Position numbers and translations under genes: made by a program. This document shows, piece by piece, positions 1,286-31,917 of a DNA stretch of 64,000 nt. The stretch's first letter is position 1, and each line of letters starts with the position of its first letter. This DNA is from Psilocybe cubensis (taxonomy: Eukaryota), in assembly GCA_017499595.2 (NCBI GenBank), contig CM039002.1, positions 3,348,001 through 3,412,000 on the forward strand. Reading direction: 5' to 3'. The notes beneath the pieces were generated by a model. That model saw only the letters and a list, made by a program, of their open reading frames with translations, ran no database searches and had not been told where the DNA came from.

Positions 1286-1645
1286 TCAATACTCTACCAA
1301 ATCATCTTTGTCCTCATTAGATTCTGGAGTGGGAAGTAAATTACCATCGGGACCAATGATCAGCGTGGAATGGCAATCTGGATGTTGGAGCGTACGATGA
1401 GTAGGGGGGCAAGGTACATTGAGCGTTGACGGAAAGAGTGGTTGATAGAGAACCAGCTCGTGGGCGTGGGAAGCTTGGGGTGGAGATTGGGTGGCTTCTG
1501 CCTCCCCATCGACGTCTTGTTTAAGATGCTCACTCTTATCCTTACCGGCGTTGCCATCCTGAGATCGTTTGCTCGAAATACCCTGACTTTCCTCTAGTGG
1601 ATTGGTGAGGTTGAAGAATTTAATCTCATTTGACACATTCATCAT
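1286..1645 (-). CDS. Hypothetical protein (possibly the last exon of a small gene)
   Basis: 119-aa ORF with no recognisable motif. Confidence 0.3.
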   Translation of the reverse strand: MMNVSNEIKFFNLTNPLEESQGISSKRSQDGNAGKDKSEHLKQDVDGEAEATQSPPQASHAHELVLYQPLFPSTLNVPCPPTHRTLQHPDCHSTLIIGPDGNLLPTPESNEDKDDLVEY

Positions 1646-1955
1646 CAGTAAATCCGGATTTTCGAAGGTAACTCAACGTATTGTCCTGCCAACCGGATGT
1701 AGCATCAAAGTGGGCTGTAGACAGTATAGCGTCATGTGTCATCGGCGGGATGCTCCGTTGAGCTCTGTAGCATTCCAACATTACTACTGCGAGCTTTGGA
1801 TTTTCCTAGCTATCTCTATGTACGATTCCAGACTTAGGAGAGTTTGATGTCCAATGTGATTGGTCTCAGTAAAGCTCTTCAATCATATCAAGCAATAAAA
1901 TGTACATTTTTAAAGGCAATTAAGTGTCTATTTACAATGTAGTATCTTGACCCTA

Positions 1956-2506
1956 TTAATGATCCTGACATTCTCGTATGAGATCCTGCCCATTACTAAG
2001 AAAGTGTAGAAACAAAGTAGTTATCACTGTGACTCACCTCTACCGTTCGAATATGAATCTGGCCGTTGGCTATAATGGACATCCCTTGGGTCAATATGTG
2101 CTCGGGGCTGCCTGAGTCTGCATCCCGAAGTGTCTCCTCCTAGTTATCTTAAGCAAGAGTATCAACTTGAAACTTGAAGAAACAGAAAACTCACGGCTCG
2201 TGCTTTGAGCCACTGGTCACCCTCGGTAATCTTGGCTTTAGCCAACGATAGTAACCTTGGGTCCAGGGTGGTCCAGTTAATTTCGTTGAAAAGGGCCAGG
2301 ATGGCCAGTATCAGCCTGTTCTCGGTCAAAAGGACCATTTTTTGGGTCTGCTCAACTAACTGAGCCATTTCCAAGTCGTATTGCTGTCTTTGAGAAGCAA
2401 GTGAGGCGGCCTCTGGGAAAGTTGTAGGATGTATTAGATCTGGGAAAGTAGGGGCCAATACTTCTGCTTCGATTCGTAAAATTTCCTCATAGCTGATGAT
2501 TTGCAT
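1956..2506 (-). CDS. Small helical hypothetical protein, 3 exons
   Basis: MQIISYEEILRIEAEV...KARA|EETLRDAD...RTVE|DLIRECQDH* can be joined through GT-AG introns. Confidence 0.5.
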
Positions 2507-2801
2507 GGTGTGTGATACGCTCACTTTGTCGTAGTTGGAATTCAAGCTGAAAACAAACTTCGCGGGTATAAAAATTCTTCAGGGGTTCTGTATACGTAAA
2601 ACAAAGTTCTATAGATTTTTCTAGGCTAGTCTAAGAAGATGCCTATCTAACTGAATGCGGGAGGAGCGCGCGTAGTGGTGGCAAGCAAAAGAGTGATTAT
2701 TGAGAATGCGTACTACATGGCGCGGTCGTGAAAGTTGAAACTTATTGAGACTATGTGGCAGTTGCAGCACTCTCACCAAAGGCGCATTTGCCGACCCAGA
2801 G

Positions 2802-3850
2802 TCACCATTGCAAGGCTTGTGCGAGGGCACGTTCGCAGCGACCAATTTCACGAGGTGGGAGACCAGATAACCTTGCCCAAGCACGGTTAGAATAACACTT
2901 TTCTTGTGAAAATTTGGAGGCCAGGATGAGGGATGCCAGAAAGGCTCTACGGGGACACAGGAGGGGAGATGGCAAAGAAAGGGTGGTGGAAAGAGGAGCC
3001 GTTGAGACCTGCACATCTACGCTGGACAGAGAGTCTTGTGGATAGATGCACGATTCAGCCAGATCTTGTGAACCAGAATCGGCAACACGGAATGTTTGCA
3101 TAGAATTGTCAATGAAATTATTGATGATGTTGATCTTGCCGGAGTTCTCAAGAGCAGTAAGCTCAGCATCCATCGCCAGCTCTTCTGGGGTAGCTTTCTG
3201 AATACTGCTTTTGGGCTGAGCATAAGAGCGAATGCCGATGTTTTCCTCTTGCAAAATCTGTGGGACCTTGGGACGAATGGATTCTAGATAACATAGTGCT
3301 ATCTGCAGTACGTTTTTAGATGTCCTTGAGTGGCGAAGGACTTTATAAACAAAAGACTTGAGGGGTAATATCTGATCGGATTTGGTGCCCGAGGCAAGCA
3401 AGAGGGTCGGGGAAGGGTTATGGCCGGATACGGAGGGATGACTGTTGTGTGGATGTATTGGATGTGTATGAGACGCTATGGATTGCAAATCGGAAGAGAT
3501 CTGCTTGGAAGTTGGACGGGAATGAGTAGGAGGAAAAGAGCTACCCCCTACTTTGGCGGGGGGTAGGAACACGGAAGGAATATCCTGAGGGTGCCAGATC
3601 TCGGACAAGGTGCTGACAGCTTGATCTGCAATGGAATTTAAAAAATAAAGTGAGTATCTCCGGCAAGGTGGGCGCTAATTGAGGACAGGACGGACCGGCA
3701 AGCCTTGAAAAAAAATTTTGTTTAGAAGAAGAGGCGCTCTGGGAAGAATCCTTTGGAATTTGCGCAGTGGTGGGTGGAATAGATGAGTGAGAACGACTTG
3801 ATTCTGCAGAAATGAGACGGATGGAGGGGTATTCAGTAGGTAATGATACA
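2802..3850 (-). pseudogene. Pcl/Clg1/Pas1-type (Pho85-partner family) cyclin, C-terminally truncated by a premature TGA
   Basis: Cyclin box: VLRHSRTSKNVLQIALCYLESIR ... SPLLCPRRAFLASLILASKFSQEKCYSNRAWARLSGLPPREIGRCERALAQALQW. The stop at 2802-2804 is followed in frame by LWVGK, so W-(R>stop)-LWVGK. Confidence 0.8.
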
Positions 3851-3883
3851 GAGGCATGGCAGGTATGGATTGTGGGAGAGAGG

Positions 3884-4390
3884 CCAATGCTTTCCTCTTG
3901 CAAATTTTGGGAACCTTGGGACGAATGGCTTCGAGATAACATAGTGCTGTCTGCAGTATGTTTCCAGATGTCCTCAATCCTCAAAGGACTTCAGTGGGTA
4001 GAAATAGGGAGGGAATGTCTTGAGGGCGCCAGATCTCAGATAAGGTGCTGACAGCTTAATCTGCAATGGAATTGAAAAAATAAAGTGAGTATCTCCGGCA
4101 AGATGGGCGCTAATTGAGGACAGGACGGACCGACAAGACTGGAGGCGAATTTTTGTTTAGAGGAAGAGGCACTCTGGGAAGAATCCTTTGGAGTTTGGGT
4201 GGTGGTGAGCGGAAGATGAGCGAGAACGACTTGATTCTGCAGAGATGAGATGGATGGAGGGATATGCAGTAGGTGACGATGATACAGTGTGAGAAAGCGG
4301 GACTGGTGAGAAGCGGCTGTTGATATTGATCCGAGTCGTCTTTGTGTACAACGAGGCCGGCGTGTTGGGTGATAATTTGAGTGGCAATGT
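3884..4390 (-). pseudogene. Degenerate, internally deleted tandem duplicate of the cyclin 5' region
   Basis: About 4025-4290 duplicates about 3590-3850, including the intron. About 3884-3975 duplicates about 3235-3325 (RTSGNILQTALCYLEAIRPKVPKI). The duplicate has GAT-TAA at 4056-4058 where the other copy has GAT-CAA. Confidence 0.75.
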
Positions 4391-4434
4391 GCATTAGGGA
4401 TTGAAAACTTTGTGGGTTTCCTGAGGTGGATATG

Positions 4435-7400
4435 TTATGATGACAGGGCCAAATAGAGTTCTTTGTCAAAATATTTGTTTAATCGGAACTCGGTGCTAGT
4501 GGAATGACTGTTATGTGTAGTAAGGCTTCGCCTTGCCTTTTCGCCCATCTGAGGGACCAGATCAACCAGGGAGCGTATTTGATTCAATGGTAAAATTCCA
4601 CCCATAATGGTGTTATCTGTACGTTGACTTCGTTTTAATTTATACATGCCGGTTATTGGCTCTGGGTAAGGTCCACGGATCGCAGAACCTAGAGACTGTG
4701 GCTGATTTAAAACCTCAAAACGTTGGACGTATGCGAGAAATCTTCCAGTAATATCGGGAGACACAGTACTGGGTGTCTCTCCGACAATGCGAAAAATAAT
4801 ACGAATGTCGACGACAGAATGGCCTACAATATTGGCTGGTCAACGGGGTTCGGAAAAAAGTCACAAAGAAGTACTACCTTGAAGCCCACTGCGAGGCCAC
4901 TCCTCAGATTCATCCACGTTTATGATTGCTGAATCGAAGTATCCAAAAGGATGTTTGTTAGATGGCGGATATGCATTAAGTGTGACTGCCTCCAGGATCT
5001 CATGAGGGTATTGGTACGCAGTCGACTGTATACGGACCTTATGCCATACCTCAAGTTTTGAATACGGCAACGGACAACCGGGAGGAGAAACACGCCTGCC
5101 AGTTATCCCCTTGATGTGATAACCTCGAGAATTGGTGTGTCTCGGATTTGATTCCTTATTGATGAGTGACACATAATCGGCAATTGCTGGTCGTAGGTCG
5201 GGAATTTTAAAAATGCTCGCAACCTCGTCGATATGCAATCTTTTGGAACTAGCATCCCTAGATAAATGGGCAACAACGTTTTTGCTGCAAGAAAATGTTC
5301 TGTAGGGGACTGGGCCTTCCAATACGCCACGCTCATAGAGACTAGCTTTGTAGAAGTAATCCACAATGCGATTGGACTTTGCTGATTGAAAGGTTGTCAT
5401 CGGCATGATTGTTGAAAGAAGTTCTGACGTTGTGTCCATCACAACCTCGCCGTTTTCCTCCCCCTCATCCCCCTCCTCCTGCTCCTCCTCATCCGTAATT
5501 GTTGCAGAGTGTATAGCCCGAAAATCGATCCTCATTTCTCGTATAGCTGTAAACAAATCGAAATTGCGCAATTTGTCACGACGATCAAGGTATCGACAAA
5601 CTTGAGGCTCGTATCTTTGATTATTGCTGGAACTGGAAGGGGCTTTGACCACCTCGATATGTGCATGCTCTGTCGTGTCTGCAGACCATTGGATTGCACA
5701 TCCATTTAGTCTAATTGCGTGTACTACACTTTGCAAAAACTCGAGTTTTGGAATATAGAAATTATCGATTGGGTTGTTTTTTTTACCTCGACGTGCTCCC
5801 GCGTCAAGGATGGCTTGTTTATTGGCATGGAAATCTTGCAGTGCCTGCTCAATTCTGAGACACATTGCCTCGGAGATTGTTTGAGATTGTGCGAGATACC
5901 GAAAGTCCATCAGAGACCGGATGGCTAAGATAAAGGGTGTACTGACTGTGTCTGCAATGAGAGCAACAATGTATCGCTGAACGTCCCGATGTTCCCTACC
6001 GGTCACTTGTTTCAAGGAAGAAATCCCTTCCTTGAAGTGTCGGAAACCAGTGCGGTGCTGTAAAATCGAAAATCGAAAATCCAATTCGGAACCTCCGACT
6101 GCAGCAATGCACCATTTTGCATCATGATCCCAGAACATCTTGTGCCAGTGATGAAGGGGTTCAGGCGTAAGGAATGCAGAAGGATCAGACAAGGGCCAAT
6201 CTCTCCAAAACGGTAGGTGAACCCCATTGAGACGGTGCTTTTTGCTTTCTTTTAGATATGGTTCGAGATGATTAGGGGGCTTAACATTGTTGATGGCCAT
6301 GATGGTGTTGATTGTATGATCTGCAGTTCGGGAAGGGTGGCGAAAGGAATCCCCAAACGTCTCGTATTGTGCCAACGTCACAGAGGATGTGGATCCTGCG
6401 ACGCAAGCCGCCAGAGCAGATTCTGGAGTATCAACGATAAGGGCAGCAAGCGGTGTAAAGCAGAAACGATTATTCCCCAATGCATCTGCTATGGTGGTTC
6501 CCACCCTCGCAGTTTGTTTGACCAATTCTAGAGCAATGTCCATGCACTGGTGATATAGCCGTGCTGCCATCATCCCATTCACAGCTTTGGAGCGATGAAG
6601 AAACTTTGGTATGGGAAGAAGAACAAAAAGAAGGAATAAATGATTTGACGATTTGTTTCTAACGTTCATCATTATGTTGGCAATGCTGATAAGGCCAGGG
6701 TAGGCGACACGGCCTCCGGTCATGTTGGAAATGTTGGTTTTATCCGTGGAAATAATAGGAGGTACAAGTGTTGCTCCTTTTGGGAGCTGGTCCTTGGGAA
6801 CCTTGTTATACTGTCGTCAAACTTGGACAAAGGCATTGCTACTAACCTGCATAAAATGCGCAATGTCACCGCTAAACCACTCAGTGTATACCCGCATCAT
6901 CTCGTTGCACTTGTCGAAGAGCTTGAATGGGCTAAAGTGCATGCTATCTTGGAGCAAGGGACTGATGAGAAGCGCCTTGATACATTCCAATCCATCGCGG
7001 TAAAAAAGCGTTAGCTGATTTTTGCTTGGTATTTCTGGTATGATCGTTTGACTCTTCCACTGCGGACCAGAGGGAAGGATCTCTGCCCGGTTGCGTAGAT
7101 CTTTTGCCGACTTGTAGGACAAGTTGAGTTTTTTTATCTATACGGGATCGACTCAGCTGAAATAAATAATGATGGGAATGTACGCTCAATTACCAGTTCA
7201 AGTTTCAAAAAATCATTCAGCATTCCTACGCTCATGTCAGAGCGAAGTAGGAACAGGGAGAGCTCCCATTCATCTTTCGAGGCAAAAGGATAGTACAAAT
7301 TTTCCGCCCGCTGGGGTTCGAATTGATCCTGTTTGAGCTGATCCATGAATGTAAGGCCTGTTCCAAATGCTCTTCCAGCCCCGTTATAATCCTCCTTCAC

Positions 7401-7739
7401 GTACGGATAGCTGTATTTTGATGCCTTGGGGGGTGGGTCATCTTCCATCTCTGATGACGCGCCAAGAAAATTGTCGATATAGTCCACTTCCATAAAATTA
7501 CCAATTTCGGGAGAAGGGTCTCGAGATACGGGGGTTGCTGATCTAGATGTAGAGCTTGAACGATTGGACTGAAAATGCATAACGTTCTCATATTGAAAAC
7601 GACATGCCGATTTTGGTTGATTGATGTGATTTTGGACATCTGCATGCTTAGCGAATGGCTTGTTGCATCGAGGACAACGCACACAGATTTCCTGAGTTCT
7701 CTTGCCCTTGCCCTTTCCCATGTTGAAACAACGACTCAT
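4435..7739 (-). CDS. Plavaka-family transposase with an N-terminal C2H2-like zinc finger (multi-exon)
   Basis: Motifs: CPRCNKPF..HADVQNHINQ; YYPFASKDEWEL; RAEILPSGPQWK; LFYRDGLECIKAL; spliced MQ|DQLPKGATLVPPIISTDKTNISNMTGGRVAYP; PLAALIVDTPE; PEPLHHWHKMFWD; ELDFRFS..RHFKEGISSLKQVTGREHRD; IPKLE..WSADTTEHAHI. Exons join in frame by GT-AG introns. Confidence 0.9.
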
Positions 7740-8210
7740 ACAAAAGCGAAGATACGAAAAAAAAACTGATAATGTAATGTTCAGTAACGTGCAGTGGGTC
7801 TATAAATGTTATCTGATTATGTCTCCGTTAATACAAACAAATTTCACATGGGTTAGTATTCAACCAATCCGTAGTACAATCCAAGGAGGGCTTCGGAAGA
7901 GCTTTACTGTATATACGCACCAGAACAAAGACACTAACACATTTTTTGAAGTGGGTGGAAGAAGCATCAACAAACGTAAGTTAGTTGATTTCATTGACCT
8001 TGATGATAAATTCAAACGCACAGCAGTTACAGTAAAGCCAGAAGCTTTCATCCCAGCGAGAATTTGCGTATTGGTCTGGCGATACGAGCAGCACACAACT
8101 ACAGATAATAAAACAATCGTCATTATGTTACAGGACATACACGCCTTTCAGTACTAAATAAAACATGGCATGTATGTAAATCAAGATGTGTGTCAATGTG
8201 TTGTACAATA

Positions 8211-11200
8211 TCAAAGTCGCCGTCGTTTAGAAGGCGGAACAGACTCTGATTCTGATGAAGAGATAAGCATTTGCGACGTAAAGGCATAATCGAACACACG
8301 TACTCGGATTTGTGCTCTCCAGCTTGACTTTCATGCCATCCAGATACAGTTTATCCCTCACACTCGTACCAAGTTCCAGAATCTCCTTGGGAGTTCCTAG
8401 TTTGTGACGTGGTTAGTGAATATCCAAAGGCAGACACTGGTCCACCTACTCAATTGCGTTGAGGAATCCGCACAGGCATCACAGTCAATGAGAGTGATTA
8501 CGGGTAACTTGAGCATCTTTGGGACCGAGGAACGAGGAAGCTGGTCGATACTGCGACATATAACCTTGTTCAATTCTCCGCTGCAGACGCCCTGAAGCTG
8601 GACAAAAAGCAAACTGGTGTCGGTACAGCAAGGGGCACCACCAATGTTGTTATGTTTGGCTTCTGCGTCGTAGGCTAGAATCATACGGGCATAGCGGCAA
8701 AGTATCATTTCATGGAACTTTTCTGTCGCCATGATATTTTGTGCATCCTTGTTTTTGTCCGTCTCAATCATGTAGTGGATGGACTTCGTGCGATGACATA
8801 GCCACTCTAGAATAGCCAAGGCTTCGCCACGGGCAAAGATGCACGCCTTGCGCTCTTCGTCGCTCAGGCTGTTGGTATCCCACCGCATCCATGCGTCTAA
8901 CTGTGCCGAAGTCTTGGTGGAGAACATCTGATCGGGATTTCGATAGGTCTCGTAGTCGAGCGCATTTGCCAAGATCATGCACACGCACAGAGCTATCAAG
9001 CTCGAGTATCCGGACTGCGTACTGTAGAATGGGACATGGTACATTTCATAAAAATCTGAGAGAAAATAGAAGAAAAGAATCAGATATCTTGTAGGAAACG
9101 GTAAAAAACCTCATACCTTCTGGGTCGCTGTCACCTTCAACCAAAACCTTGTAGAACCAATGTATAGTTTGCTGCAGGAAAAATCGGGACGTTGAATGAT
9201 TCGTATTCGTTGCCCTGTATCCAGCGGTAAAACAGTGAATGATTCCTGTCAGGGTTTCTTCGAAGGAAGTGGAGGAGTAAAAATGTCCGCCACGGCAAAC
9301 CACTGAGGAGATAGAATACGCCATATGTAGAGTATTCGGTCTCATGAAGCTGTTTTTCAAAGTAGCGTCAATATAATCAAATGGGTAGGACATTCAAAAA
9401 TCACATACAGTTCTGACTGGTTATCGAGAACAATCGCCTCGTAAATCCAGTCTTGGTGGTGCGTTTCCCCGTAATCCAGCTTGTCTCCCAGAAATACACG
9501 GCGGTCAGAAGAAAGGTCAACATCCAACCGTCTGGGATACATGATAATCCACAGCTTTAGTCCATGAAGAGGTTGGATGAAGGAACAGAAACCATTGGCA
9601 TCGATATGGATATCTGAAAATGCCCCCTCTGTAGCTACGAGTCCCCACGACATATCACCAAATGGGACGGGGGTACTATACTTCCAGCTACCAGATGTAG
9701 CCCGAAGAGCAGCCGCCTCAGTACTCAAGTCAAAAGAGTGAGCGCCTGCATGAGGTAAAGGGATGTCGAGGGCATTGAGGATCTTTCCTCTTTTGCCTTT
9801 CATCCTCGCTGCTTCCATGACCTGAGAGAGGGACCCACGCTTAATCCTCTCGATGGGGTTAGACGACATGGTCGACATATCTGTTACGGCCATTAGCATG
9901 AGACGCAGAAAGAAAAATCAAAACATCGAAGAGGAAACACACCTTGGATTGACCTGGTGCTCGTCATATCACCCATATGGCGACGTACCTGGCTGTAGAA
10001 CTCGTCGGAGCAAGTTGAAATAGACTCCTCTTGAGAAGGAGACATAAGGACGACGTTCCTTTCAGAGAAAGACTCCATCAGATACATGGATTTCGTGGTG
10101 CTGCGGTCGAATACCGCAAAACATGATTCTTCGGGACGTGCTATGTGCAATGGAACTCCATCGACGTAGTCACTCTCGACCAATTCCAGAACCCTTTCAA
10201 CACGATCCACGTCGGCTTGACTCTTGTTTGGAGAATAAATAAATGACGAAAAAATCAATATCGAGAATGACTTACATGGGCAACAACGCAGAAACTTTTA
10301 AGTTGGCCACGACCGTTGTAGATGGACCAAACTTTGGTGCCATACACCTTCTCCGGAGTGCTGACGACATCAAGGGTGGTGTTGCTGTCGTACAGATCGA
10401 CATCAATACACAGGTCGTCGTCCGAATCAAATGTGTCGGTAGCCTGCGTCGGCTTGCGTTTGGGAGGCCGCTTGGAAAGGCCCTGCCGGCCCTTCCCTTT
10501 CCCTTTCTGAGAGGAGTCAGCCGTGGTGTTTTTGCTCCTGTTTATCTGGGAAACAGGAGGAATCCTCAAAATAAGAGGAGCAGGAGGTGCGTTCTCCCCC
10601 TCCTTTTCGCCTTGGCTGTCTTCCAATGTATTCCTCTCCATGTCTGAGGAATCATTGTTTTGCTCTGGGCCTACCCCCTCTCCATCGACCGACATTCTGT
10701 CCTCCTGGACTGGTGGAACATCCCCTTGCCCCTGCTTCTCGGTCTCATTGTCCGACGAACTGTCGTCTGGCCTTTCCTCCTCACCATCTTCTGACATTCG
10801 GTTCTCCTCGTCGGGTCGTTCTCCGTCTTGCCCCTGCTTTTCGCCCTCGTGAACTTCCGACATATGATTTGCCTCGTCAGAAGACCCTTCAGCTCCTTGT
10901 CCAGCCCCGCCGTCTCCCAAATTTTCTGGACCATTGGTATGTGGACCATCCTCCATTTGATGGTCGACATCAGCTTGCTCCGGATCGACGTTCATCTCAC
11001 AATCCCCTGCAGTTGAGGGCCCAGTATTCTCAGTCTGAAGTAGACCAGATCCAATATCATCACTCCGCGGCAAACCAGGTTGCTTGTCCGTGGGCACATC
11101 CTTGCCAGCCACCGAAGATGTGTCTTCCGGAGGCTGTATATCTGAGGTAGGGACCGTATTGTCCCCGTTCTCCTGTTGACCCATGCTGACATCCTTGCCA

Positions 11201-12870
11201 GCCACTGAAGACGTGTCTTCCGGAGGCTGTATATTTGAGGTAGGGACCGTATTGTCCCCGTTCTCCCGTTGACCCATGCTGACCATTTCCGTCGTGTCCA
11301 CTTCGTGATCATCGTCACCCTCCGCGTCTGCGTCGGACCCTTCACAGGTGGTTTTTTCACCATGATGGGAAACGGTCTGAAGTTGAGCTGTTTTAAACGG
11401 ATTTAAATCATGTAATTGACGCAGACTTTGCTTATAACTTACCGTGTGGTTCAGTGCTGTGCCTTGCTAGGTTAGAATTTGCTGTAACCTTGGCGCTGCT
11501 CGTTGACGCTGGCCAATTATTAGTTTAAATTGTTATTTTGTTACAGTACGTAGAACACACATATGAAAAAGTGAAACGCGGGATCTTGTGCAATTACCCG
11601 CTCGCATTCCATCCAGCAGTCTGAGATAACAAGTTTATATAAGGCTGACTGGATGTCGCAATTTTGCGCTGCAATGATTTTCCAAATTTCCATCTCCACT
11701 TCACGCAGAACACGGGGGCGACAATTACCGAGCGCTTTTGAGGCCTAAAGGAGTGCGTTAATCCAAGTTAAACTGGGAGGATGTGGATACACCTACTTTA
11801 AGCAGCTGCTCCCGGTCACATTTCTTAGAATACCAAGATTTATTCACAAAAAGAAGGATGGGGGATATGAAAAGGGCGACATGCAGAGGAATTTTTAAAT
11901 GAGATGGCGTGACCTCTGAGAGGAACAACGCAGCATCAGGATGGCCGCTTGCACTAGGGTATGTTGAGCAGATTGTATCAATGAATAGAGGAAAGAAAAC
12001 TTACTAGAGATTTGCAAGAGTAGCCGTGTCCGTTGGAATGTCTGGTAGAATGTGTTCATTGTCCTTCATACCGCGCATTCCTGACAAGATTTGGTAGTGT
12101 AGCGAGGCGCAGTACACATTCCCGATTATTTTCCCCACAACACCCTTGAAGTGGTTACGCGCCAGACAGAGTAATAGCGTTGATTCCGAGGGCCCGCCCT
12201 GGGTGAAAGCGGATGACGGCGTGTCACTGATAGAAGGGGTGTTGATGTTTCTGTGCGACTTAGAGTCGGCTCTGAGGATGCGCTTCCTGGCAGAGCAGAG
12301 CATTGCCGGCCAGTCCTTCAAGTCATCTACAAGCTACAATAATTGTTTGAAAATTAAGAATTAACATTGAGTGACTTCATGATCGCATACCTTGAACCGT
12401 GAAAATATTTCCTTAGTTCCTGTGCTGGCCTGTATTTCATTCAGGGGCACGGTCACCGGCAACGATGGTCCAAAGGCTGCTGGCCACAACGCTACGAGAT
12501 CGAGTAGACGGTATGCTGCAAATAAGCTACCCGCCTGCTCCCATGTAGCCGAGGTTACGCAGGGTGTCTCTACGATGTTGTTCTGAAGGGCAGCCAAGCT
12601 TTGCCTATACTTGATGGCCGCTCGCATGCTCGATGATGAAACATCGTAATTCAAAAAGGTGAAGTCCTCATATCGTCGGAGGAAATCCACCATCCTCTAC
12701 AGAAACTTGATATTAGTACCATAAATGGCAATCCAATTAAGACCTACGCGGAGTGGGTGCGACTCTGGCAACATGTTTTCCAGAGTCTGACGAACGACCT
12801 GCGTTTCGAAGAGAAACACCAGAATTTCTTCAGCTTGGAGTCGGGCAACGGGGGAAATCTTCTGGGCTTG
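8211..12870 (-). CDS. Large multi-exon protein with an acidic disordered region and a JmjC (2OG-Fe(II) dioxygenase) domain; start uncertain
   Basis: WGLVATEGAFSDIHIDANGFCSF..GLKLWII (HxD plus Lys) and YEAIVLD..|FMRPNTLHMAYSISSVVCRGGHFY (distal His) give a JmjC double-stranded beta-helix signature. Consecutive minus ORFs (12361, 12004, 10255, 9893, 9357, 9046, 8397) are separated by short GT-AG introns. Ends PPSKRRRL*. Confidence 0.75.
11092..11283 (-). repeat. Two near-identical 96-bp direct repeats encoding MGQxENGDNTVPTSxIQPPEDTSSVAGKDV
   Basis: Visible in the DNA and in the 10255..11301 ORF translation. Confidence 0.9.
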
Positions 12871-13063
12871 CACTACAAAACTTCAACGTCTCACCCTGCA
12901 TTCTATTTCTTTGGGTACTTACTTTTTTTTGTGTGTTTTTTTCTGGTGTCTCAAATTTTCAACTAGATGAATTTTAACTGAACGAAAACTATTATAGAGT
13001 GTCTAGAGTATTGTCTATGTCTATTTTATTAGAATGTATGTTAAATCTATGGGGAGGGGTACT

Positions 13064-13309
13064 ACGCTATGACGAACGGAAAGAAAAACAATCAAGTTGG
13101 AAACACGCTATTTCCGGAGCGATTCTTTAGGGTAGGTTTCCCGTCCTGAAGTCACGAGTTGGTTAAAAAAACGCCCGTGATGCGGCTGATGTAAGGGGGC
13201 GTTTTTTTAACCAACTCGTGACTTCAGGACGGGAAACCTACCCTAAAGAATCGCTCCGGAAATAGCGTGTTTCTCACCATATGTTTTCTCTTTCCGTTCA
13301 TCATAGCGT
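13064..13309. repeat. Long inverted repeat (hairpin): perfect 77-bp arms with a 20-nt loop, plus imperfect outer arms
   Basis: 13100-13176 is the exact reverse complement of 13197-13273. 13064-13090 pairs imperfectly with about 13282-13309. Confidence 0.97.
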
Positions 13310-13514
13310 CTTATCATAGTAATAGGTTGTGTAGTATCTAAAAATAAATTATCACAAGTTAAGATGATAAATTAAGTGAGATGAACATCGATTAACAGTC
13401 TTTAAGACCCACAATGTCTAGTTATAAACGCAGATGACTTGACAGCCTAGGCAACCGCACAGTGTGTACTAATCCAACCCTCCATCTAATCACTAACTTC
13501 AGGGAAATTTAATT

Positions 13515-15773
13515 ATGATCTCAAAAAATCAGGACATTAATCCCTTCATAGACATTGAAGCAGCGGTTTCCGATGATGATGAAAGTTCGGAAGAGCTTGA
13601 TTATGAAGGGGGCCAACTACGTATGTTCCAATAATTTACATATATTCTGCTCAATATGTACTGATGCTAATGGGTTCTGACATACAGTGAATGATAACGA
13701 TGAATACTCTGAGGATGAGGAACGTGTTGCACACTCTCGGCTATATCATGCCATGCAAAATACAGATAACGCTGATGAATGGAGCGATTTGTTGCCCATG
13801 CTTCTGCCTTCACGCATGAAAATTCGTCCTGACAATGATATAGAGCCATCTAGTTCACGAGAACTTATACAGAAATATGGCAATCCCCAACCAGGAGGAC
13901 TTGGTGATAATAATTATATGCCTTCCGCGACTGATATCATGTATGAAATAGGTTGCAAGGTACGCAAAAATAATATAAGTCTTCAGTCAGCATTTATTGA
14001 TCACCTTACGAGTGATAGGTTGGACGCGAAGAGGCCGTCGCTTTCAAAATTATGCAGATGTCAACGAACCCTACATTTTCCATCATCCTTGCCCGGTCTG
14101 TCTTCGCTCAATCCTCAATTCCTGGGAGAATCTACGTCGAGGCGCCATCAATGCAACATGCGCATACGTTAGCCTGCCTCGTTAGAGAGCTTAATCCGAC
14201 ACATTTAGTTAGGCTATCCTCGGAGAGATGTATGGAGATCCTATCTCATCCCCCACCCTCACGCCCTGAAGACCAATCGTGGGTCAAGGTTGCTGGAAAG
14301 CGTAAGGCTTGGACGACCTACGCAAATGCTACCGGCCTTGTGTTCACATTCCAGGGTCGGAAAAGTGTTGTTCTTATCCCCAGACCTCCGGACAACATCA
14401 AGAAATCGCACCTCGACAGGATATTCCAGGATGGATTTATTATCACGGATTTCGACGCCATCGATCTCAAATATCTTTCCAATGTCCTCCCAACATCGTC
14501 CGAGTTGGAGCAATTTCGCGAGTGTCCATTTGTAACGACGGAGACCTTAGCGCAAGCCTCGAAAGCCATCTCCATGACTCGACTGAAACGATATGATCGA
14601 GTCAAAATTATTGGTGGAGAATACTTAGGTCTTTTTGGAACGGTCAAGAGTGTTTCTGACGCTGAGGTGGAAGTGCACATCCCCTCCCAAGGTATAACAC
14701 AAGCAGTTGCACTACACGATCTACGTGCAGCTTTCCAGATAGGCGATAGTATTGAAGTCGTTGAAGGGGATCACAAAGATCTCCATGGATGGGTGTCAGA
14801 CTTTGATGGAAGATCTGTTTGTATTATCGCCCCAGAGCACGAACGCGAAGTAGGTGAACTGTCATTCTCTTTGTCTCAGTAGTGTTCAACACATTTTTCA
14901 GGTCATTGTGCCCATCCACACAGTCATATTCTACGTCCCCCCTGCCCATGCTACTCTTCGCCCGCGAAAGCGTCATTCGTCAAAGCTTGGAGAAAGAGAC
15001 CACAACGACGTCTATATAGGTTTGAGTGTCATCGTTGTCGGGAATAATACATTCAAGGGGTACTATGGCATCGTTAAAAGCACTACCCCCGACGGCTTTG
15101 CAGACGTTGAGCTGGAAGCTCGTAACCAGAGGGTGGAACGTATTAAAATATCACATTTAATTATACAGTATGTGGTTTCACTTGATTCGTTGACTGTCAG
15201 GTGCTTACTGACATTGTTTCAAGCAACCGAGAACATATAAATTCCGCTCAAGACCCCGGGCCTTCTGGTGGAGCAACTCCAATGCCGTCCACAGTAGCAA
15301 GTTTTCTGTCTCCTGCATGGAATCCGTATTCAGCAATACCTGTACACTCGGCGGTGGAAATCGCAGAACTACCCTCAACCATCGCTCACTGGCTAGATAC
15401 GAAATACGATAAGCTGAAAGGATTACGATTAAAAGTCGTAGACAAATCCAAGGGCGACCATCAAGTGGCGATGGAACTTCTCAGCCTTACCGACGATACT
15501 GCCCACCTAGCATTACTGGGACGTACACTGACATTACCGAAATCAGTGTTGTTTCCAATTCATCCTGTAAAAAAGGACGACTTCGTTACACCGCTTGAGG
15601 GCGATTCAATGGGGATTATATTCAGGATACGATCAATAGACAAGGATATTTGCGTTGTACATAAATATCCCGTTACTCGTATGAAACGCGGTGATACATT
15701 CCCAACTTTTCCGACAACATCTTTGATTCAAATCTTCCCCCCGTCCCGTGGTGTCAAAGTTGTAAATATGTAG
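13515..15773 (+). CDS. Spt5/NusG-like transcription elongation factor paralogue (acidic N-terminus, NGN domain, several KOW motifs)
   Basis: NPFIDIEAAVSDDDE acidic N-terminus. NGN-like YEIGCK|VGREEAVAFKIMQ..SVFAQSSIPGRIYVEA. KOWs: YDRVKIIGGEYLGLFGTV, FQIGDSIEVVEGDHKDLHGWV, IGLSVIVVGNNTFKGYYGIVK..ADVELEA. CTR remnant GGATPMP..SPAWNP. About 5 exons. Shorter and more diverged than canonical SPT5. Confidence 0.82.
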
Positions 15774-15940
15774 GGTGCAGCATTACTTGTATCTCGAACA
15801 CGGACTTGTAGACATATACGGGTTTTATGTCATTCTATTTAAGTGTATTTCGGCAATCAACAGTGCTAATGGTTCGTAATGTGTTGATCGTCTTGAACTT
15901 AAGCCACCACCACCACACCAAATTGTTGCCTATCTTTATC

Positions 15941-16283
15941 ATGAACCATTCCAATAGCAACAACGCTTCGCAACCTCAAAGTCGCCGCCTCCCTAGCATA
16001 CCCGAAGAGGCAGAGTTCTTTGTTTTAGGTCTATTTTCATGTTTTAATCCACCTTCCTCTAGAATCAAGGCATAGAGGCCGTTAAAAAGGCTCTTGACCA
16101 ATTTCAACTCACTGAACAGAGGTGTCTAGAAGTTCAGGCAGAGCTACGTTGTTATATGGACGACATTATGCGAGCATATAAATCCAATGAAGATCTTCTG
16201 TTTGAAACCCAGCTCGAAATCGCCCATCTACGGGTATCCCTCATTAGTCGGGGAATACCTATTCTAATGCACCCTCAGGATAA
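15941..16283 (+). CDS. Small coiled-coil hypothetical protein (2 exons, probable GC-AG intron)
   Basis: MNHSNSNNASQPQSRRLPSIPEE|NQGIEAVKKALDQFQLTEQRCLEVQAELR...LEIAHLRVSLISRGIP..*. Confidence 0.4.
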
Positions 16284-16567
16284 TCCGCGATCATGATAGG
16301 TGCAGTCTTTTCCCCTCTGAGATGTAACTTTACTTAACTCTAAGTAGGACATGGAATCTGACTATAATGTATATGTGATATATTGTAGTAGATAGGGGTA
16401 CTGTTTCAGTACCTGTAATTTCTATATGGCACGATATATTTTTGACTGATGTCCGTCGCCTTAAATTTTGAAAAGAGGCTAATTTCGCATACCTCCGGAT
16501 CGTAGCTTGACATAATTCACCACCCCTTGTCTCTATTTCTGCATTACAACCGTCAAACCAGCCCAAT

Positions 16568-19274
16568 ATGCCACCTAAAGGATCCAAAAAGAAAAAGGCG
16601 GTTGTCAATGCCACGGTTGAAGGTATCATCTATATATCCTCATTACATCCGCATACTTAATGTTTTATCCATCTAGGACAAGAGGTTGAACAGGGTCCGA
16701 GCTCCGTGGCAGAAAACGAGCCACCTCAGGCTCCTGAAGCAGGTCTGTACTAGCATTTTCTTTGTTGAGATTCACTGAACTCCTTATTAAAAAGACCACA
16801 ATGGCCGTCCTATCCGAAGCACCCGTGGTCTTGGTGGAGTAAATGCTCGGCAGGAGAAAACATCTAACATCATTTTTATTGACTTCGAGAAGGCTGGGAA
16901 GAGGAAGTCAAGGGCCGCCAATGTGGATACTAGCGCCATGCCTGAAAATGAGATGGCGCCTCCCTTGAAGAAACCTCGCAATGGGGTGAGTCTACTGTTC
17001 TAATCTTAAATTTGCTATCTTCCAAGCACGTCTAGGTTACCGTTGTGTCGCATGTAGGTCCCCCTATTCAAATGCAACCAAGGCCAACGCCTTCAGTTGC
17101 TCCTTGGGATGTCCAACAAGTCCAACCAAGCCCACGACAATCTCAGGGTGCCCCCCCTCCTGTCCAGATCCAACGTGCAGCTCAGAGAAATCAGGAGCAC
17201 TCAGAGCTTGATCATGCTGTCCAAAGACCCACTGCCCCCATCCAGCGCCCCGCTGCTCCGGTACAACAGCCAGCACATCCTGTCCCGCGCCCCGTACAAC
17301 ATGCAGCACATCCTGTCCCGCGCCCTGTACAACACGCAGCAAATCCTGTTCAGCGTTACGCTGCCCCTGCGGCAGAGAATTCTGTCCAATACTACGATGC
17401 CCCCGTACAACAACCAGTGCATCCTGTAACACAACATGCCCCCGTACAACAGCCAGTGCATCCAGCAGCCTATAACGCCCACCAAGAGGCTAGCATCAGC
17501 CATCAAGACGAGGAGGAGCAACAAGATTACGAAGGCATAGAGCAGGAGGAAGATGAGGAGGAGGAAGAGGGGGATAGTGACGGTGAAAGGCAATCTGAGG
17601 AAGCATCAGGGGACGAATGCATGCAAGGAATTGATGAAGAGAATATTGGGGATGAAGAAGCTCTCCAATATGTCGACGGTGAAGCCTGCTGCCCAGCGTT
17701 GGTTTAACTCCACCTTTATGTTGTGTTTGCTTACCACCTATGTTTGACAGTGGTTGATGAAGTTTCCGATGATGAAGAGGAGAGGAGAGCAAGGGCATTG
17801 CTCCGCCAGCCTTCCCCCCATGTAATCATTTCTCTGCTGTATTTAATGTCTAGCTAATGTATTATTGATATAGGTTGTGGAAGTAGAGGATGTTCTTCAA
17901 GAACACCGTCGTCGTAATCGGGCGAACAAGCCATCTCGCCCTGAGGCATTGCGCAAGGCGGCTGTTTCGCAAGGAGCCGTATCCCAAGGTTTGACAAGGG
18001 AGAACAACGAAGCATCTGACGATGATGAGGTGCTTGGTGAGGCACACATCGCTCATAAGAAGTCCAGTACTTCTTCTGCTAGGGAAGTATCCAAGCATTC
18101 AGTTGCATCCTTTACTGGTTACTGGAAAGATGTGCTCAAAATTGCACGCAAACTGATGTGCCTGTATGTAGTAGAGGAGGTCCCCTTTCCCACTCGGGAA
18201 AATCACTTATTAGTCGCCGATGGATGTGTGAAGATGGCAGTAACCGTGTTTGAAAGAATGAACACGGATAAAGTGTTGCCTGATAGTAAGTTCTGTCTTC
18301 TGTGATTTTAGTTAATTGGTTTACATAACTTTGCAGAGAAAAAAACGCTCCTAGACAGGAATACCGCCGTAACGGTATATTTTTAGCGTGTTCTTTTAAG
18401 GATATCGTACTAACGTGTCTGTTCTCATTAGGCATTTGTCTACGCGTCAACCTTCCGGGGAAGACTGAAGACGATGATCAGACCCCTGGTCAAAAATGCG
18501 TATGGCCTCGAAGTCCCGTCGGAGGTCATCGCCGCGAACCCCAATATGTTTGAAAATCAGATGGGGGAGATCGAATACATCAAGGACAGGGTAGCATATT
18601 GGCTACTCAATGGTAAATACCACCGGGGTGTTGCCAAAACCCGAGTGAGTTCGCCGTCCATTTTACCTGGCTTACCACTCATTGATTTGTTTCCAGTATC
18701 ACGATGTCCCATTTGGACATCCTTTTGTGAAGAAGATCTGTCTGGACTTCTTCTACCATCCTACAAAAGGGGTTGCAGTCCCCATCAAAGGTCTGGAGAC
18801 AAAGACGGATTTCTTCAAGACATCGCTTCCCCACAAAGCATTTGCGCTTGTGGCCAGTTGTGTAGTTCTGATTTCTCTCCTGCTATTGGCACTGCCTTGC
18901 TAACAAGCATTTTGCTGTAGATCCACAACTGTCTTGAGGAGTGGAGGGATGGGATTGACCCTGCAAGAGGTGGTCCGTGTTCGGGTATTGAATTCAAGGG
19001 AGAGGAGTACTCCCTGAGGTATGATGCCTGCATGTTGGTTGCAGCAGAGGCAGAGAAGGATACCTTGAACCAAGGTCCTCGCTTGGCTCGCTTATGTAGG
19101 GAAGTGGCTGAGGAAGGATGGTGTGTATCTTTTTTTATTCATTTCTTTCTTTGCATCATTTAGATCTCCATAATCAGTGCTATTATGAGGCCTACGAAGA
19201 ACCCCCCCAACCCTTATAGGATGACTCTCCATTCTATCCCACAGGAGGAACTAGATTACGGTCCAGAAGGGTAG
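16568..19274 (+). CDS. DUF6532-like transposon-associated protein with Q/P-rich and acidic N-terminal half (multi-exon)
   Basis: Starts MPPKGSKKKK. C-terminal ASTFRGRLKT...PFGHPFVKKICLDFFY...PHKAFALVASC|IHNCLEEWRDG...FKGEEYSLRY resembles the agaricomycete DUF6532 pattern. Confidence 0.6.
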
Positions 19275-19541
19275 TTGGGTGAATGAGCGGGGCAGCTGCC
19301 GGGTGTGGATTAGAAGATACCATATTTAGATCGTCACATATTAATAGTTATGCATCTACTAATAGAAACATGTTTGGTCCGATCCAAACATAGATTATCT
19401 ATTTTTAAAATTGCCCATTTTAGTCAAAAATGGTTCGGTTTTCAGTGTGATATTGGCACTTGCAGGAATAGCCACACAACACTATACAAATGAAAGTGGA
19501 TACTATATATGCCTTTGTACCTATTTGCAGTGTGTTATGAT

Positions 19542-19614
19542 GTGCTACAAATCTGTGGTAGCATGCTACAAATCTGTGGTAGCATGCTACAAATCTGTGG
19601 TAGTATGCTACAAT
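19542..19614. repeat. 21-bp tandem repeat (TGCTACAAATCTGTGGTAGCA), about 3.5 copies
   Basis: Read directly from the sequence. Confidence 0.9.
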
Positions 19615-19814
19615 TTGTATGTCAGTTGTATACAGAGGGGTATGGACCATGGTAAGCATGCTACACGCCGCTACACAGCACTCGCGTTACAATACAGATC
19701 ACTACAGAGTACCATGTCACGTTGGTACCAAGCTACAGGTACATCAGTGTGTGTTACCCAAATGGGACCGTTACTATGGGCACTACAGAATTACGTATCA
19801 CTACGGATCATTAC

Positions 19815-20642
19815 CTACTTGGCCCCGGTATTGCTGATGATGGTTAGGGGGAGCATTGGCAAGGGCATGTTAACAGGCAAGTTAATCATGGGTAACTTGG
19901 AGTTGGCAACCGGCAGTGTGTTTATAGACGAGTGAGCCATGGGAGAGGGATTCATGGGCGAGGGATTCATGGGCGAGGGATTCATGGGCGAGGGAGCCAT
20001 GGGCGAGGGAGCCATGGGCGATGGTCTGATGGACGAGCTGGGCGAGGGATTCATAGACGAGCTGGGTGATGTATCCATGGGCGAGGGATTCATGGGCGAT
20101 GGCTTTGTGGACGAGCTGGGCGAGGGTGCCATGGGTGTGGGATTCATGGGCAATGGTTTTGTAGACGAGCTGGGCGAGGGATTCATAGACGAGCTGGTGT
20201 TTAAGAAAAAGTCTGGCGAGGCATCCATTGGATGGTGGTGTTCAATTGGCGAGGGTGTCTTGGCAGGCATATCTATTGTGGGCGACATATTAAGTATGTC
20301 TTCTGCACGCAGGGAGATAGTAGACGGAGTATGGGTTTCCTCAACCATGGGCGTTTGTGAATTGACTACTTTGGATAGGTTGTTCAACTCATGGCTGGTA
20401 TGTTGTGCAGAGTGGTCCTCGTCGAGATCAATGGGTTCAGCAGATGAGCCTCCGGACCATGATCGACTGAATGCAGCTAGTTTCTCTGACGAGTGTACAG
20501 GTACGTACTCAGCTTCAGAAGCCATGTTCATGGTGATGTTTGGAGACCCCATTTTTTCCAGCCCATCTTCAACAATTTGACAGTTTCCGCACATAGCACT
20601 GTAACATTGTACAGTAACATACGATACAATGAACCTATACAT
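19815..20642 (-). CDS. Hypothetical protein with 15-bp MNPSP/MAPSP repeats (a further 3' exon to about 19670 is possible)
   Basis: 275-aa ORF. Repeats at about 19935-20200 account for the antisense MGEGF ORF. Confidence 0.5.
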   Translation of the reverse strand: MYRFIVSYVTVQCYSAMCGNCQIVEDGLEKMGSPNITMNMASEAEYVPVHSSEKLAAFSRSWSGGSSAEPIDLDEDHSAQHTSHELNNLSKVVNSQTPMVEETHTPSTISLRAEDILNMSPTIDMPAKTPSPIEHHHPMDASPDFFLNTSSSMNPSPSSSTKPLPMNPTPMAPSPSSSTKPSPMNPSPMDTSPSSSMNPSPSSSIRPSPMAPSPMAPSPMNPSPMNPSPMNPSPMAHSSINTLPVANSKLPMINLPVNMPLPMLPLTIISNTGAK

Positions 20643-21966: not shown

Positions 21967-25476
<3,510 letters not shown>

Positions 25477-25592: not shown

Positions 25593-25965
25593 CTAATGGC
25601 TTCTTTGTCTTTGACGGCGTACCCGCTTTCCAGAGAGAATAAGGTCCTCATCTACCTCTCTATGCTTTCTTCGCACACCTGAACTTTCTGCTTGCTTATC
25701 TGCATGTGCTGGTATATGCAATGATGCCTCGATCTGCCGCGCCTCTTCCAATAAACGTCTTGACTCTTCAGCCTGTGCAATCTCATCGGGAGTGGTTGGC
25801 TTTTTTCTCGGACGTGGTTTGGGTCGGGAAGATTTGTTTTTGTTGGTATGCCGCCCAGGCTCCAGAATACTAACATCAAGCAATCCATTAGTACCAATCA
25901 CTAGAGTTGGTGCTGTGGATGTGGGTGCGGGTGCGGGTGTGGGTGTGGGTGTGGGTGTGGGTGCA

Positions 25966-25996
<31 letters not shown>

Positions 25997-27975
25997 GTGC
26001 ATCTGCGGGTGCGGGTGCGGGTGCGGGTGCGGGTGCGGGTGCGGGTGCGTGTGTGGGTGCGTGTGCGGGTGCGGATGCAGGTGGTGCGGGTACAGGTGCG
26101 GGTGGTGCAGGTGCGGGCGTGGGCGCAGGTGCCGATGCAGGTGCAGGTGGTGTGGGTGCAGGTGCAGGTGGTGCGGGTGCAGGTGGTGTGGGTGTGGGTG
26201 CGGGTGGTGCGGGTGCGGGTGGTGCAGGTGCGGGTGCGGGTGCGGGTGCGGGTGTGTGAATTATAACTTGATTTGCTTGACTTTCATTCAACAAAACTGG
26301 GTCAATATCCTGCATATTGATCTTTGTGTGAGGTGGTGGAGGTGGTGCTTTTGAGGGCGCTTCTACTGGCTGAAAACTATCAAAGGACACCAATTGAGAA
26401 GCACCTTGCATGTCTTCAATGCGGAGTGGTGCAGATTCAAGAGGTGCGGGTTTCGTAGGTGCGGCAGTATTCTTCTTTTTAGCTGCTTTTTTTGGTTTTT
26501 TAGGTGGAACCCGGCGCTTCTCTGCATCAGATTGAAAGTCTTCGTCGGGGTAATTTGTTGGGGTAGTTTCATCCCCCTTCCTAAATTTTTTTACCTTGCG
26601 GAAGCGGAAGACCTGGCTGGGTGGAAATATTTCTTGTCGGGCGTAAATGTGGTCCATGATACGTCGGAGGTCATCTAAACTGACTGAGCGGGGTGCATTA
26701 AGGCGGACCTTTGGGGGTAAATATTCTGGTGAAATAAATGTTGACTGATATTCATGAAGAGCATTAAATGGTGCATGTTTAGAACGGCCATTGGTGGCTA
26801 AAACTACTCAATTGTTAGGCAAAGGTATCCCTTTTGAAGAAAATAATGACTGGCAACTCACAGTAGTTCTGCCCCATATACATACGATACAACTCTTCCA
26901 ACTGTTCCTTGTTGTATTTACTTGCATCAAAGTTGGATGGCAAAAGCGGAAATCCGTCGGGATCTTGGTCAAGGATAGATATTTCAGTAGTGTTTTCATT
27001 GCGGGTCCCATTCCGTATTCTGTCTCTAGCATTTAACAACCCACGAACATATGTAGCAACCATCCTCTTCATTTGGGTGACTTCATCGGGCTTCTGGTCC
27101 TCAAACAGAGTGGAGACAACACCAAGTGTACTAGCAACTTGATCATGACTATCAAATTGGTGAGTGCATGTGTTTGAATGTGGAAAAACATGACTCACAC
27201 TCGGACAGAGAGCTGGCCCGATTCATTGAGCCTTGCAACAAATGTTATATTCATCAAACCCATTTCTGCCCAATGAACAGTAGCAGCCTCATCAAGCCTC
27301 TTAAAAGCATATTTGTTCCCCCTCCTATAAATATTTTAGAGCTAGTGTACTGTTAAATATTAATGACTTACTTTAGTTTCTGCTCGTCCGTATACTCAAC
27401 TGTATTCAATGTTTCCGCTTCCCTATCCAGAGCTCGTTTTTCTTGCGGAGTCATGCGGCTAATAATATTGCCCATCGCACGGGAGCGGGTTTCAAATGCC
27501 AAAGGTGTAGTACTGTCGGCATGTTCAAGTCCAAGGATTGAGGCAATTTCCTTATAGACATCGTCGGGTCGGGTTCGCCATAGCACAGTAGTACGCTTGT
27601 GCTTTTCCCCCTTGAGTTCAGCACCGGTTGGTTGAGGTGCTCTCCAATTATTCCGAATCCAACCAAGTAGCCGCTGGCAGTAATCGGAATTGGTAAATAT
27701 TGTCAGGTAAGTAACCAATAGTAACATACCTTTGCCTCTTTTTGTGCAAATTCCTGAGTTGCAGACAGACGTCTACTTCCTGTCGTAACCCAAATATTAA
27801 ATAGTTTAGGGAGAATCTTGCATACAACCTGTTTGCGTTCAAGATTAGATGTTGCCGCAAAATATTCTTCTTTGAAAGGGTCTATTTCCTTTCTCTCCAG
27901 ACTATTGTACACCCTCTTGCGCCTATCGTGGGTCTGAAAAACATCTAGAACATCTTGCTCATCTATCTCCGACAT
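25593..27975 (-). CDS. Multi-exon hypothetical protein divergent from the KDZ transposase, with a PA/HA-rich C-terminal region and basic tail
   Basis: MSEIDEQDVLDVF..LPKLFNIW..|RLLGWIRNNWR..; ..DGFPLLPSNF..KEQLEELYRMYMGQNY..; FRFRKV; (PA)n; ILSGKRVRRQRQR. Its start is about 200 bp from the transposase ATG. Confidence 0.7.
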
Positions 27976-31100: not shown

Positions 31101-31917
31101 TCCTACCTTCTAATGGGAATGTGGACATCATTCATGCACCATCTGAAATACATGCTAGGATTTCACAAGCTCGAGGACACCTGAATCAAATTCGAGAACT
31201 TATTGCAGAGAGGTCATTTCAGTATTCCGATGTCATACGAAAGGGCCCACGAAAAGGTGTGCGTACACGAGGACAAGCGGCAGCAAAGGAGTTGAGGGAA
31301 CGCATTTCACATCATGCACAAGCCTACTCACGATGTCGAGATTGCCTAGTTCAACTTGGTGCCGACAACAATATTCTTCGGGAGTTTCGGGTCCTCACCA
31401 AAGATGATGTCCGATCAAGTACCGCTGTTCTTAACCCGAACATACCAGGATCGACAAATTTCCGCTTGTCATGGATATGGTACTCAGTAAATCAACGGTT
31501 AGGTCCCCGATGGGTGCTGGATCCCGACGCTCCCGACAATGCCGATCCGAATTCTCTCGGCGATAACGCTGATCCGGCAACAGTGCTTGAATGTCAGTTA
31601 ATTTCTCATATTGATTCTATTTTTGTTGAGCGCTAATTTCTATTAACCTTTCAGTTAAAAGAGTACATTGGTTAAGAGCCAGAGCTCACTTTCAACGATG
31701 GAAGGAGGAGAGTACATTGGTTAGGTATGAGATGCAATGGACCGTGACATATTTCTTACACAAGAGTGCAACCTGGAAGTCGGCTATCGAGGATAACCCG
31801 ACAATTTTGCCGGGTGCAATAGCATATGCACATCGCAAAGCGCAAATGTGGCATCATTTGGCTTTGATATCAGATCGATCTTTTAGATCAGTAAATAAAC
31901 ATTACAAACCTTTGTAA
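28172..31917 (+). CDS. KDZ transposase with CxC2 cysteine cluster (multi-exon, apparently intact)
   Basis: CTQC..WRCRDC..LLCRRCIRHEHQVNPMHRIERWNG; VVHTNGLHHLAMVSCVC (CxC2); CPACPQPGVNL; ADGNFKADH; TGIVGVACARHG; DLFKGEQQKNVDF; YDIICQY; FHVHAHKDEC; GEILESLWADLN; final exon RVHWLRARAHFQRWKEE. Confidence 0.93.

Follow-up and report, generated by a model that had tools for sequence, protein, structure and literature searches.

Spt5/NusG is, to our knowledge, the only transcription factor common to all domains of life, and in eukaryotes Spt5 is normally encoded by a single essential gene. Its known specialised paralogues, such as plant KTF1 and ciliate Spt5m, serve the host in controlling mobile DNA, and a core transcription factor as transposon cargo would be unusual. 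Here we describe an Spt5-like gene at positions 13515..15773 of a 64,000-nucleotide (nt) stretch of Psilocybe cubensis DNA (assembly GCA_017499595.2, contig CM039002.1, positions 3,348,001 to 3,412,000 of the forward strand), referred to below as the window, to which all coordinates refer. An earlier note on this DNA had read the gene as a transposon-borne Spt5/NusG paralogue with reduced C-terminal repeats (CTR). Pfam searches, comparison of sequence profiles with chains in the PDB and fold searches with predicted structures support its assignment as a diverged, short Spt5 paralogue with a reduced CTR, and it is plausible that the gene is the cargo of a large DNA transposon.

Among the described systems, KTF1 (SPT5L, RDM3), the partner of polymerase V in RNA-directed DNA methylation, is the product of a host gene and carries a long WG/GW Argonaute-hook tail. 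It shares with the window protein the character of a specialised Spt5 paralogue tied to transposon biology. However, the window protein has only one GW among its six tryptophan residues, located within KOW3, and WG/GW Argonaute-hook repeats are absent. Moreover, the profile of the family to which it belongs (alignment A1, described below) is far closer to canonical human SPT5 (5oik_Z, E 3.8e-73) than to KTF1 (chain 8hyj_W, E 1.2e-33). In Paramecium, the available text of PMC5416832 describes Spt5m as a meiosis-specific Spt5 homologue for non-coding transcription. It is likewise a second Spt5 devoted to special transcription linked to mobile-DNA control, but it is a ciliate host gene with no known transposon carriage. 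The nearest functional analogy is with the bacterial NusG paralogues RfaH, ActX, LoaP and others, some of them plasmid-encoded (PMC7819879, in its accessible part), where DNA that moves horizontally carries, or is served by, an elongation-factor paralogue with few targets. The bacterial proteins consist of two domains and are recruited by a DNA signal, whereas no recruitment signal is known for the window protein, and the sequence kinship comprises only the shared NGN and KOW folds. Finally, TET/JBP dioxygenase is described as cargo of fungal DNA transposons including PlavakaB and has been proposed to counter silencing (PMC12730594, in the excerpts available); it too is a passenger gene of large DNA transposons in Agaricomycetes that acts on chromatin or transcription, although the protein is a different one.

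Literature searches combining Spt5 with Kyakuja, or with Basidiomycota and transposons, returned no description of the family or of its transposon setting, and among the papers listed for Spt5-NGN (PF03439) none concerns fungal transposons. Iyer et al. 2014, which is said to be the founding KDZ/Plavaka paper, may mention the linkage. Neither Spt5 nor KOW occurs in the main texts of PMC12730594, PMC5751038, PMC10799480 and PMC9674265, or in the first 400 characters of the cells of the PMC12730594 supplement.

Gene model and domain composition

The coordinates given in the earlier note proved exact. Translation of the spliced frame shows an intact gene on the + strand, with an ATG at 13515-13517, a TAG at 15771-15773 and five exons separated by four GT-AG introns of 67, 59, 52 and 56 nt. 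The spliced frame comprises 2025 nt and encodes 674 residues without internal stops. The exons and the domains assigned to them are as follows.

Exon 1, 13515..13620, + strand: start codon, acidic N-terminus and F-I-D-I-E-A motif
Exon 2, 13688..13959, + strand: acidic/linker region and first NGN strand
Exon 3, 14019..14849, + strand: remaining NGN (~14022-14204), KOW1-like domain with a shortened insert (~14271-14516), KOW2 (~14589-14690) and KOW3 (~14736-14843), assigned from Pfam, the AlphaFold2 model, Foldseek and the family alignment
Exon 4, 14902..15167, + strand: short linker replacing KOWx-KOW4, then a KOW5-like domain (~15049-15135), assigned from Pfam and the family profile
Exon 5, 15224..15773, + strand: single SPAWNP (15309-15326), KOW6-KOW7-like tandem (~15387-15740) and stop codon

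A 252-nt palindrome (13061..13312) lies some 200 nt on the 5' side of the start codon and has the look of a foldback element or miniature inverted-repeat transposable element (MITE). Its arms are 113 nt long and 92% complementary, the loop is 20 nt, and a possible 2-nt CT duplication flanks it.

The N-terminus is acidic, as had been noted earlier (26 D+E against 8 K+R in residues 1-100), and in a profile alignment the F-I-D-I-E-A motif of exon 1 aligns with the N-terminal motif of both the short Spt5 family and human SPT5. Pfam was run on single-exon translations, with Pfam's own per-family bit scores as cut-offs. Exon 3 matched Spt5-NGN (2.9e-5; 24.4 bits, cut-off 22.4), KOW (8.5e-7), KOW2_Spt5 (1.5e-12) and KOW5_SPT5 (5.9e-7), all above cut-off, and exon 4 matched KOW5_SPT5 (9.3e-7). 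Exons 2 and 5, searched alone, matched no Pfam family, and no KOWx or KOW4 match on the exon translations reached its cut-off.

The AlphaFold2 model of exon 3, built from 45 aligned sequences, had a mean predicted local distance difference test score (pLDDT) of 88. When the model was compared with the PDB using Foldseek, the top matches were Spt5 chains of RNA polymerase II (Pol II) elongation complexes (E 1.7e-13), and 42 matches had E<=0.001. The template modelling (TM) scores were low (0.25-0.31), as is expected where small domains are strung together. In the model of exon 5, mean pLDDT was 92-97 in the blocks spanning residues 61-170, and the best Foldseek match was 5ohq, the human DSIF KOW6-KOW7 crystal structure (E 1.8e-5, TM-score 0.76 normalised to the target, root mean square deviation 3.4, 115 columns). 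NGN and KOW folds were thus recovered both by hidden Markov model searches and by structure searches, which bears out the NGN-like domain that had been read from the letters.

In total, six KOW folds can be assigned, namely KOW1, 2, 3 and 5 and the KOW6-7-like tandem. The earlier count of at least three KOW motifs was therefore right as to their presence but too low, and it overlooked the absence of KOWx-KOW4; only about 35 residues separate KOW3 from KOW5. The NGN motif G-x-I-Y-V-E-A is kept as G-R-I-Y-V-E-A. Of the CTR, one SPAWN(P) unit is left, at residue 521, in agreement with the remnant of repeats described previously.

The short Spt5 family and canonical SPT5

A full scan of 1.84 billion representative proteins with exon 3 returned 350 representatives at E<=0.001, of which 88 reached E<=1e-10 and 10 reached E<=1e-30; canonical Spt5 is among those counted. 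The top match, P0001, is a hypothetical protein from Psilocybe cubensis with 98% identity to exon 3 and 97% identity to the spliced protein across 318 aligned residues; the matches ranked after it show 30-40% identity. When the spliced protein was used in BLAST, 17 of the 150 listed representatives aligned in one piece, from query position 126 or earlier to 622 or later, and these were mostly 680-780 residues long. Many matches of about 300 residues begin and end at the boundaries of exon 3 and look like open reading frame (ORF)-only calls of this exon, suggesting that the intron positions are conserved.

In alignment A1 (n=20), conserved positions were found across every domain, and the window protein retains 8 of the 9 invariant and 11 of the 14 near-invariant family columns. 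SPAW units, counted by pattern search in 24 sampled family members, numbered one in 14, two in 1 and none in 9, so that on present sequences a CTR remnant of a single unit is a family trait. The relationships were examined in a neighbour-joining tree (Biopython, without support values; 70 sequences, 295 columns), in which four canonical-type sequences were basal and 65 others, together with the window protein, formed a star-like group with long branches. Neighbour clusters in the Atlas contained 50-168 members, and in 9 of the 10 rows shown more members belonged to Basidiomycota than to any other phylum, the phylum being known for few members. The taxonomy and names of the relatives rest on two named proteins and this Atlas summary; the near homologue search returned only P0001 and the profile search only P0021, while a homologue search for the longer relatives gave no matches. 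One family member carries the UniRef name 'Chromatin elongation factor SPT5'. Overall, the family is large, deeply diverged and, as far as taxa are known, mostly basidiomycete. One outside hint comes from Agaricus bisporus, presumably from a member of the short Spt5 family.

Some gene models in the family are longer than the rest. Besides the short-Spt5 parts, the long models P0006, P0020, P0036 and P0104 contain WD40 repeats or regions resembling Tet_JBP or RTC4, the latter two always scoring below the Pfam cut-offs. In one fused model the Tet_JBP-like stretch reached 29.3 bits against a cut-off of 34.9, which counts towards the reading as cargo. These four models may represent fused neighbour genes, and would then be a possible clue to conserved linkage.

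Comparison with human SPT5 shows what the family lacks. Positions 9-439 of the A1 profile correspond to SPT5 68-519 (N-terminal motif, NGN and KOW1-3), and positions 469-588 to SPT5 704-830 (KOW5 and the first CTR-type motif), while human SPT5 520-703, about 180 residues containing KOWx-KOW4, has no counterpart in the family profile. Among 28 family and canonical representatives scanned with Pfam, KOW1_SPT5 was above cut-off in the canonical-looking P0116, P0121, P0123 and P0150, and the other 24 showed only weak NGN/KOW matches. The SPAW pattern occurs five times in canonical-type P0116 and four times in P0150, and is absent from three other canonical-type proteins with differing repeats. The window protein has the acidic N-terminal motif, NGN, KOW1 with a shortened insert, KOW2, KOW3, KOW5, a CTR-type unit and the KOW6-7-like tandem in the same order as canonical SPT5. 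It differs in being some 300-400 residues shorter, in lacking KOWx-KOW4 and in having one CTR unit in place of an array. Furthermore, canonical SPT5 is a single conserved gene, whereas the window protein belongs to a large diverged family and lies in a transposon setting.

The shared order of the N-terminal motif, NGN and KOW domains, and the SPT5 name given to one family member in UniRef, are what would be expected if the window gene were simply the ordinary essential SPT5 of this genome. We consider this extremely improbable, since the protein has 674 residues against 966-1042 in three canonical-type representatives, is only 22-24% identical to canonical-type P0116, P0123 and P0150, gives weak matches with exon 3 alone to solved Spt5 chains (E 5.8e-10 to 4.4e-5) and misses both KOWx-KOW4 and the repeat array. 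Judged by the lack of these defining parts, the gene is also unlikely to be the only SPT5 orthologue in the genome.

Transposon setting, possible role and rival explanations

The Spt5-like gene lies in a transposon-rich stretch of the window, and a Plavaka transposase gene is found 5.7 kb from it. According to the available text of Kojima 2025 (PMC12730594), PlavakaB termini read 5'-CATCA..TGATG-3' and are accompanied by target-site duplications of 2-3 bp. A candidate terminus of this type at 1640 reads CATCATCAGTAAATCCGG and has an inverted partner that ends at 19842, with 15 matches in 18 positions. The candidate element thus delimited, 1640-19842, is 18.2 kb long and contains the following features in addition to the Spt5-like gene.

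1640..1657, + strand: candidate left PlavakaB-type terminus, beginning CATCATCAG
4864..7799, - strand: Plavaka transposase gene, with a zinc-finger ORF, the Plavaka domain in two ORF pieces, and DUF6830
8400..11466, - strand: JmjC/cupin-like gene, located between the transposase and Spt5-like genes
18432..18917, + strand: DUF6532 ORF, part of the downstream gene (Pfam 7.2e-5, 23.2 bits, slightly short of the 24-bit cut-off)
19825..19842, - strand: candidate right terminus, the inverted partner of 1640-1657 (15/18)

The transposase was identified by Pfam matches to Plavaka (1.5e-62 and 1.1e-16) and DUF6830 (3.6e-45). It is read in three ORF pieces, and the breaks between them (~6811-6846 and ~7158-7195) resemble very short GT-AG introns of 36-37 nt. 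In the JmjC-like gene, an H-x-D motif (H-I-D) is followed further on by another H, in surroundings that resemble a cupin (ORFs 9360-9917 and 9049-9393). The ESM Atlas gave a lead to a JmjC cluster (0.92); sequence searches of Pfam and the PDB gave no match. Its N-terminal part is acidic and contains a 93-nt tandem duplication (11096-11283).

Within the window, the transposase is flanked by only one inverted pair that starts with CATCA and agrees at 15 or more of 18 positions. The motif TGTAG is distributed asymmetrically at the two ends, with five copies on the + strand and none on the - strand at the left end (1600-2400), and nine on the - strand, four of them within a 21-nt tandem repeat, and one on the + strand at the right end (19000-19900). 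When the window was searched for a 14-nt terminus that the PMC12730594 supplement gives for one family, 9 sites matched against 6.1 expected, and two of these face each other around the transposase. A 10-nt match between 2014 and 21018 was also considered as a terminal repeat and was rejected as being at chance level. The earlier note had called the gene transposon-borne without offering evidence. This claim gains ground from candidate termini that enclose the gene together with a Plavaka transposase, but the pair is of moderate significance and the duplication is not clean. In our judgement it is plausible that the gene is the cargo of a large DNA transposon, with the chances about evenly divided.

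What the protein might do can be considered in the light of Pol II-DSIF complexes of solved structure, in which NGN-KOW1 closes over the DNA at the clamp, the RNA clamp beside the stalk consists of KOWx-KOW4 together with KOW5, and the CTR serves as a phospho-regulated landing pad. The NGN-KOW1 region would allow the window protein, probably together with Spt4, to sit where Spt5 normally binds, on the Pol II clamp and across the DNA. Since NGN-KOW1 is kept while KOWx-KOW4 and the repeat array are absent, the protein may compete for the Spt5 site and give rise to a differently equipped elongation complex. Such a complex would lack the RNA clamp/stalk contact and the repeat platform, and its coupling to CTR-recruited factors would be abnormal, with KOW5 and one proline-directed CTR unit being retained. 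By analogy with the solved complexes, then, the window protein is predicted to be an alternative Pol II clamp-binding factor without RNA clamp or repeat platform. The gain for the transposon could be processive transcription of a long multi-gene unit, or blunted co-transcriptional silencing.

Taken together, these considerations lead us to a joint reading, in which an intact short Spt5 paralogue is the cargo of an 18.2-kb PlavakaB-type transposon and replaces host DSIF or competes with it. We would give this reading an even chance. Should the family prove to be carried by giant DNA transposons, this would show that mobile elements of eukaryotes, too, can bring an elongation factor of their own. 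A wider proposal is that the transposon-carried Spt5, the JmjC-like oxygenase found here and the TET/JBP of related elements together make up a cargo set that counters silencing and re-equips Pol II on the element, as a eukaryotic counterpart of plasmid-borne NusG paralogues of the RfaH/ActX type, and that the family has spread by riding such elements. We regard this extension as doubtful, perhaps half as probable as the joint reading itself. The family, in which exactly the RNA-clamp module and the repeat platform are missing, would also provide a natural dissection of Spt5 domain functions. It makes a connection between the control of elongation and the silencing of transposons open to test in fungi, where 5-methylcytosine, TET/JBP cargo and large DNA transposons already come together.

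A number of observations weigh against the gene being functional transposon cargo. At least one terminal pair of the kind described arose by chance in 22 of 1000 mononucleotide shuffles and in 47 of 1000 first-order Markov shuffles, and this test was framed after the pair had been seen. The flanks of the element, ATT and GTT, agree at two of three positions, so that there is no clean 2-3 bp duplication, and generic inverted-repeat searches revealed no long terminal inverted repeat around the Spt5-like gene. The window contains no second copy of the gene. In addition, the 90%-identity cluster of P0001 comprises three member sequences on one contig, and hence there is no sign of recent amplification. 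The 28 representatives scanned with Pfam included no transposase-domain fusions, and the extra parts of seven longer or fused family models matched neither the window nor each other's partners. As for the protein itself, the KOW1 insert falls some 30 residues short of that in the relatives, with loss of the family G-D and R-P-x-Q motifs, and one invariant family column has changed from R to K. The KOW1 region also fails to match PF23042 (KOW1_SPT5), which the Atlas neighbours carry, yet the AlphaFold2 model shows strands there.

The main rival is that the gene is a host gene, a specialised Spt5 paralogue like KTF1/SPT5L or Spt5m that aids non-coding transcription for transposon silencing and merely resides in a transposon-rich island. 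The intact frame with four short canonical introns, the intron positions that the ORF-only relatives hint are conserved, the constraint distributed across all domains and the single copy at 90% identity in public data would all fit such a gene, and the known specialised Spt5 paralogues do act in silencing (PMC5416832; 10.1101/2023.04.30.538882; both in the portions available). On the other hand, hundreds of clusters at 50% identity and a star-like tree with very long branches would be unusual for a single conserved host factor. The protein is also devoid of Argonaute-hook repeats, and the gene is enclosed with the transposase by candidate Plavaka termini. On balance we consider a host origin unlikely, albeit a serious contender. 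Still less probable, in our view, is that we are dealing with an inert relic: a passenger copy in decay among the remains of old transposons, its frame still open but without function. The shortened KOW1 insert, its lost motifs and the missing KOW1_SPT5 match would suit decay, as would the MITE-like palindrome about 200 nt upstream and the imperfect target-site duplication. Against this, 2025 coding bases are free of stops and frameshifts across four canonical introns, 8 of 9 invariant columns are kept, the AlphaFold2 models are confident, and the nearest public protein, itself from Psilocybe cubensis, is 97% identical over 318 residues.

Neighbouring genes in the window

Beyond the candidate element, the window contains a second transposase gene, and ordinary genes are found only from about 38000 onward, outside the transposon island.

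28477-31633, + strand: KDZ transposase with CxC2
38073-40006, - strand: aldehyde dehydrogenase
45173-46133, + strand: TRI5-like terpene synthase
61411-62202, - strand: adenosine deaminase
62598-63694, - strand: class-III aminotransferase

On the 3' side of the KDZ transposase lies an ORF of no assigned function, followed by a 73-nt tandem array of about 12 copies (33854-34667). The array may be a subterminal repeat of a KDZ element; no copy occurs elsewhere in the window, and for this reason it does not help to place the element boundaries. Between the transposase regions, coding-frame minisatellites were found at 19938-20181, 22634-22991, 24202-24348, 25054-25190 and 25923-26254, with periods of 15, 27, 57, 18 and 6 nt, respectively; the long ORFs bearing them have no Pfam match. 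Finally, an ORF of 937 residues at 51452-54262 (+ strand), likewise without a Pfam match, lies in a GC-rich stretch (GC 0.575, AT skew 0.26), and its translation is serine-rich at first, then charged and coiled-coil-like, and ends in a hydrophobic C-terminal segment.

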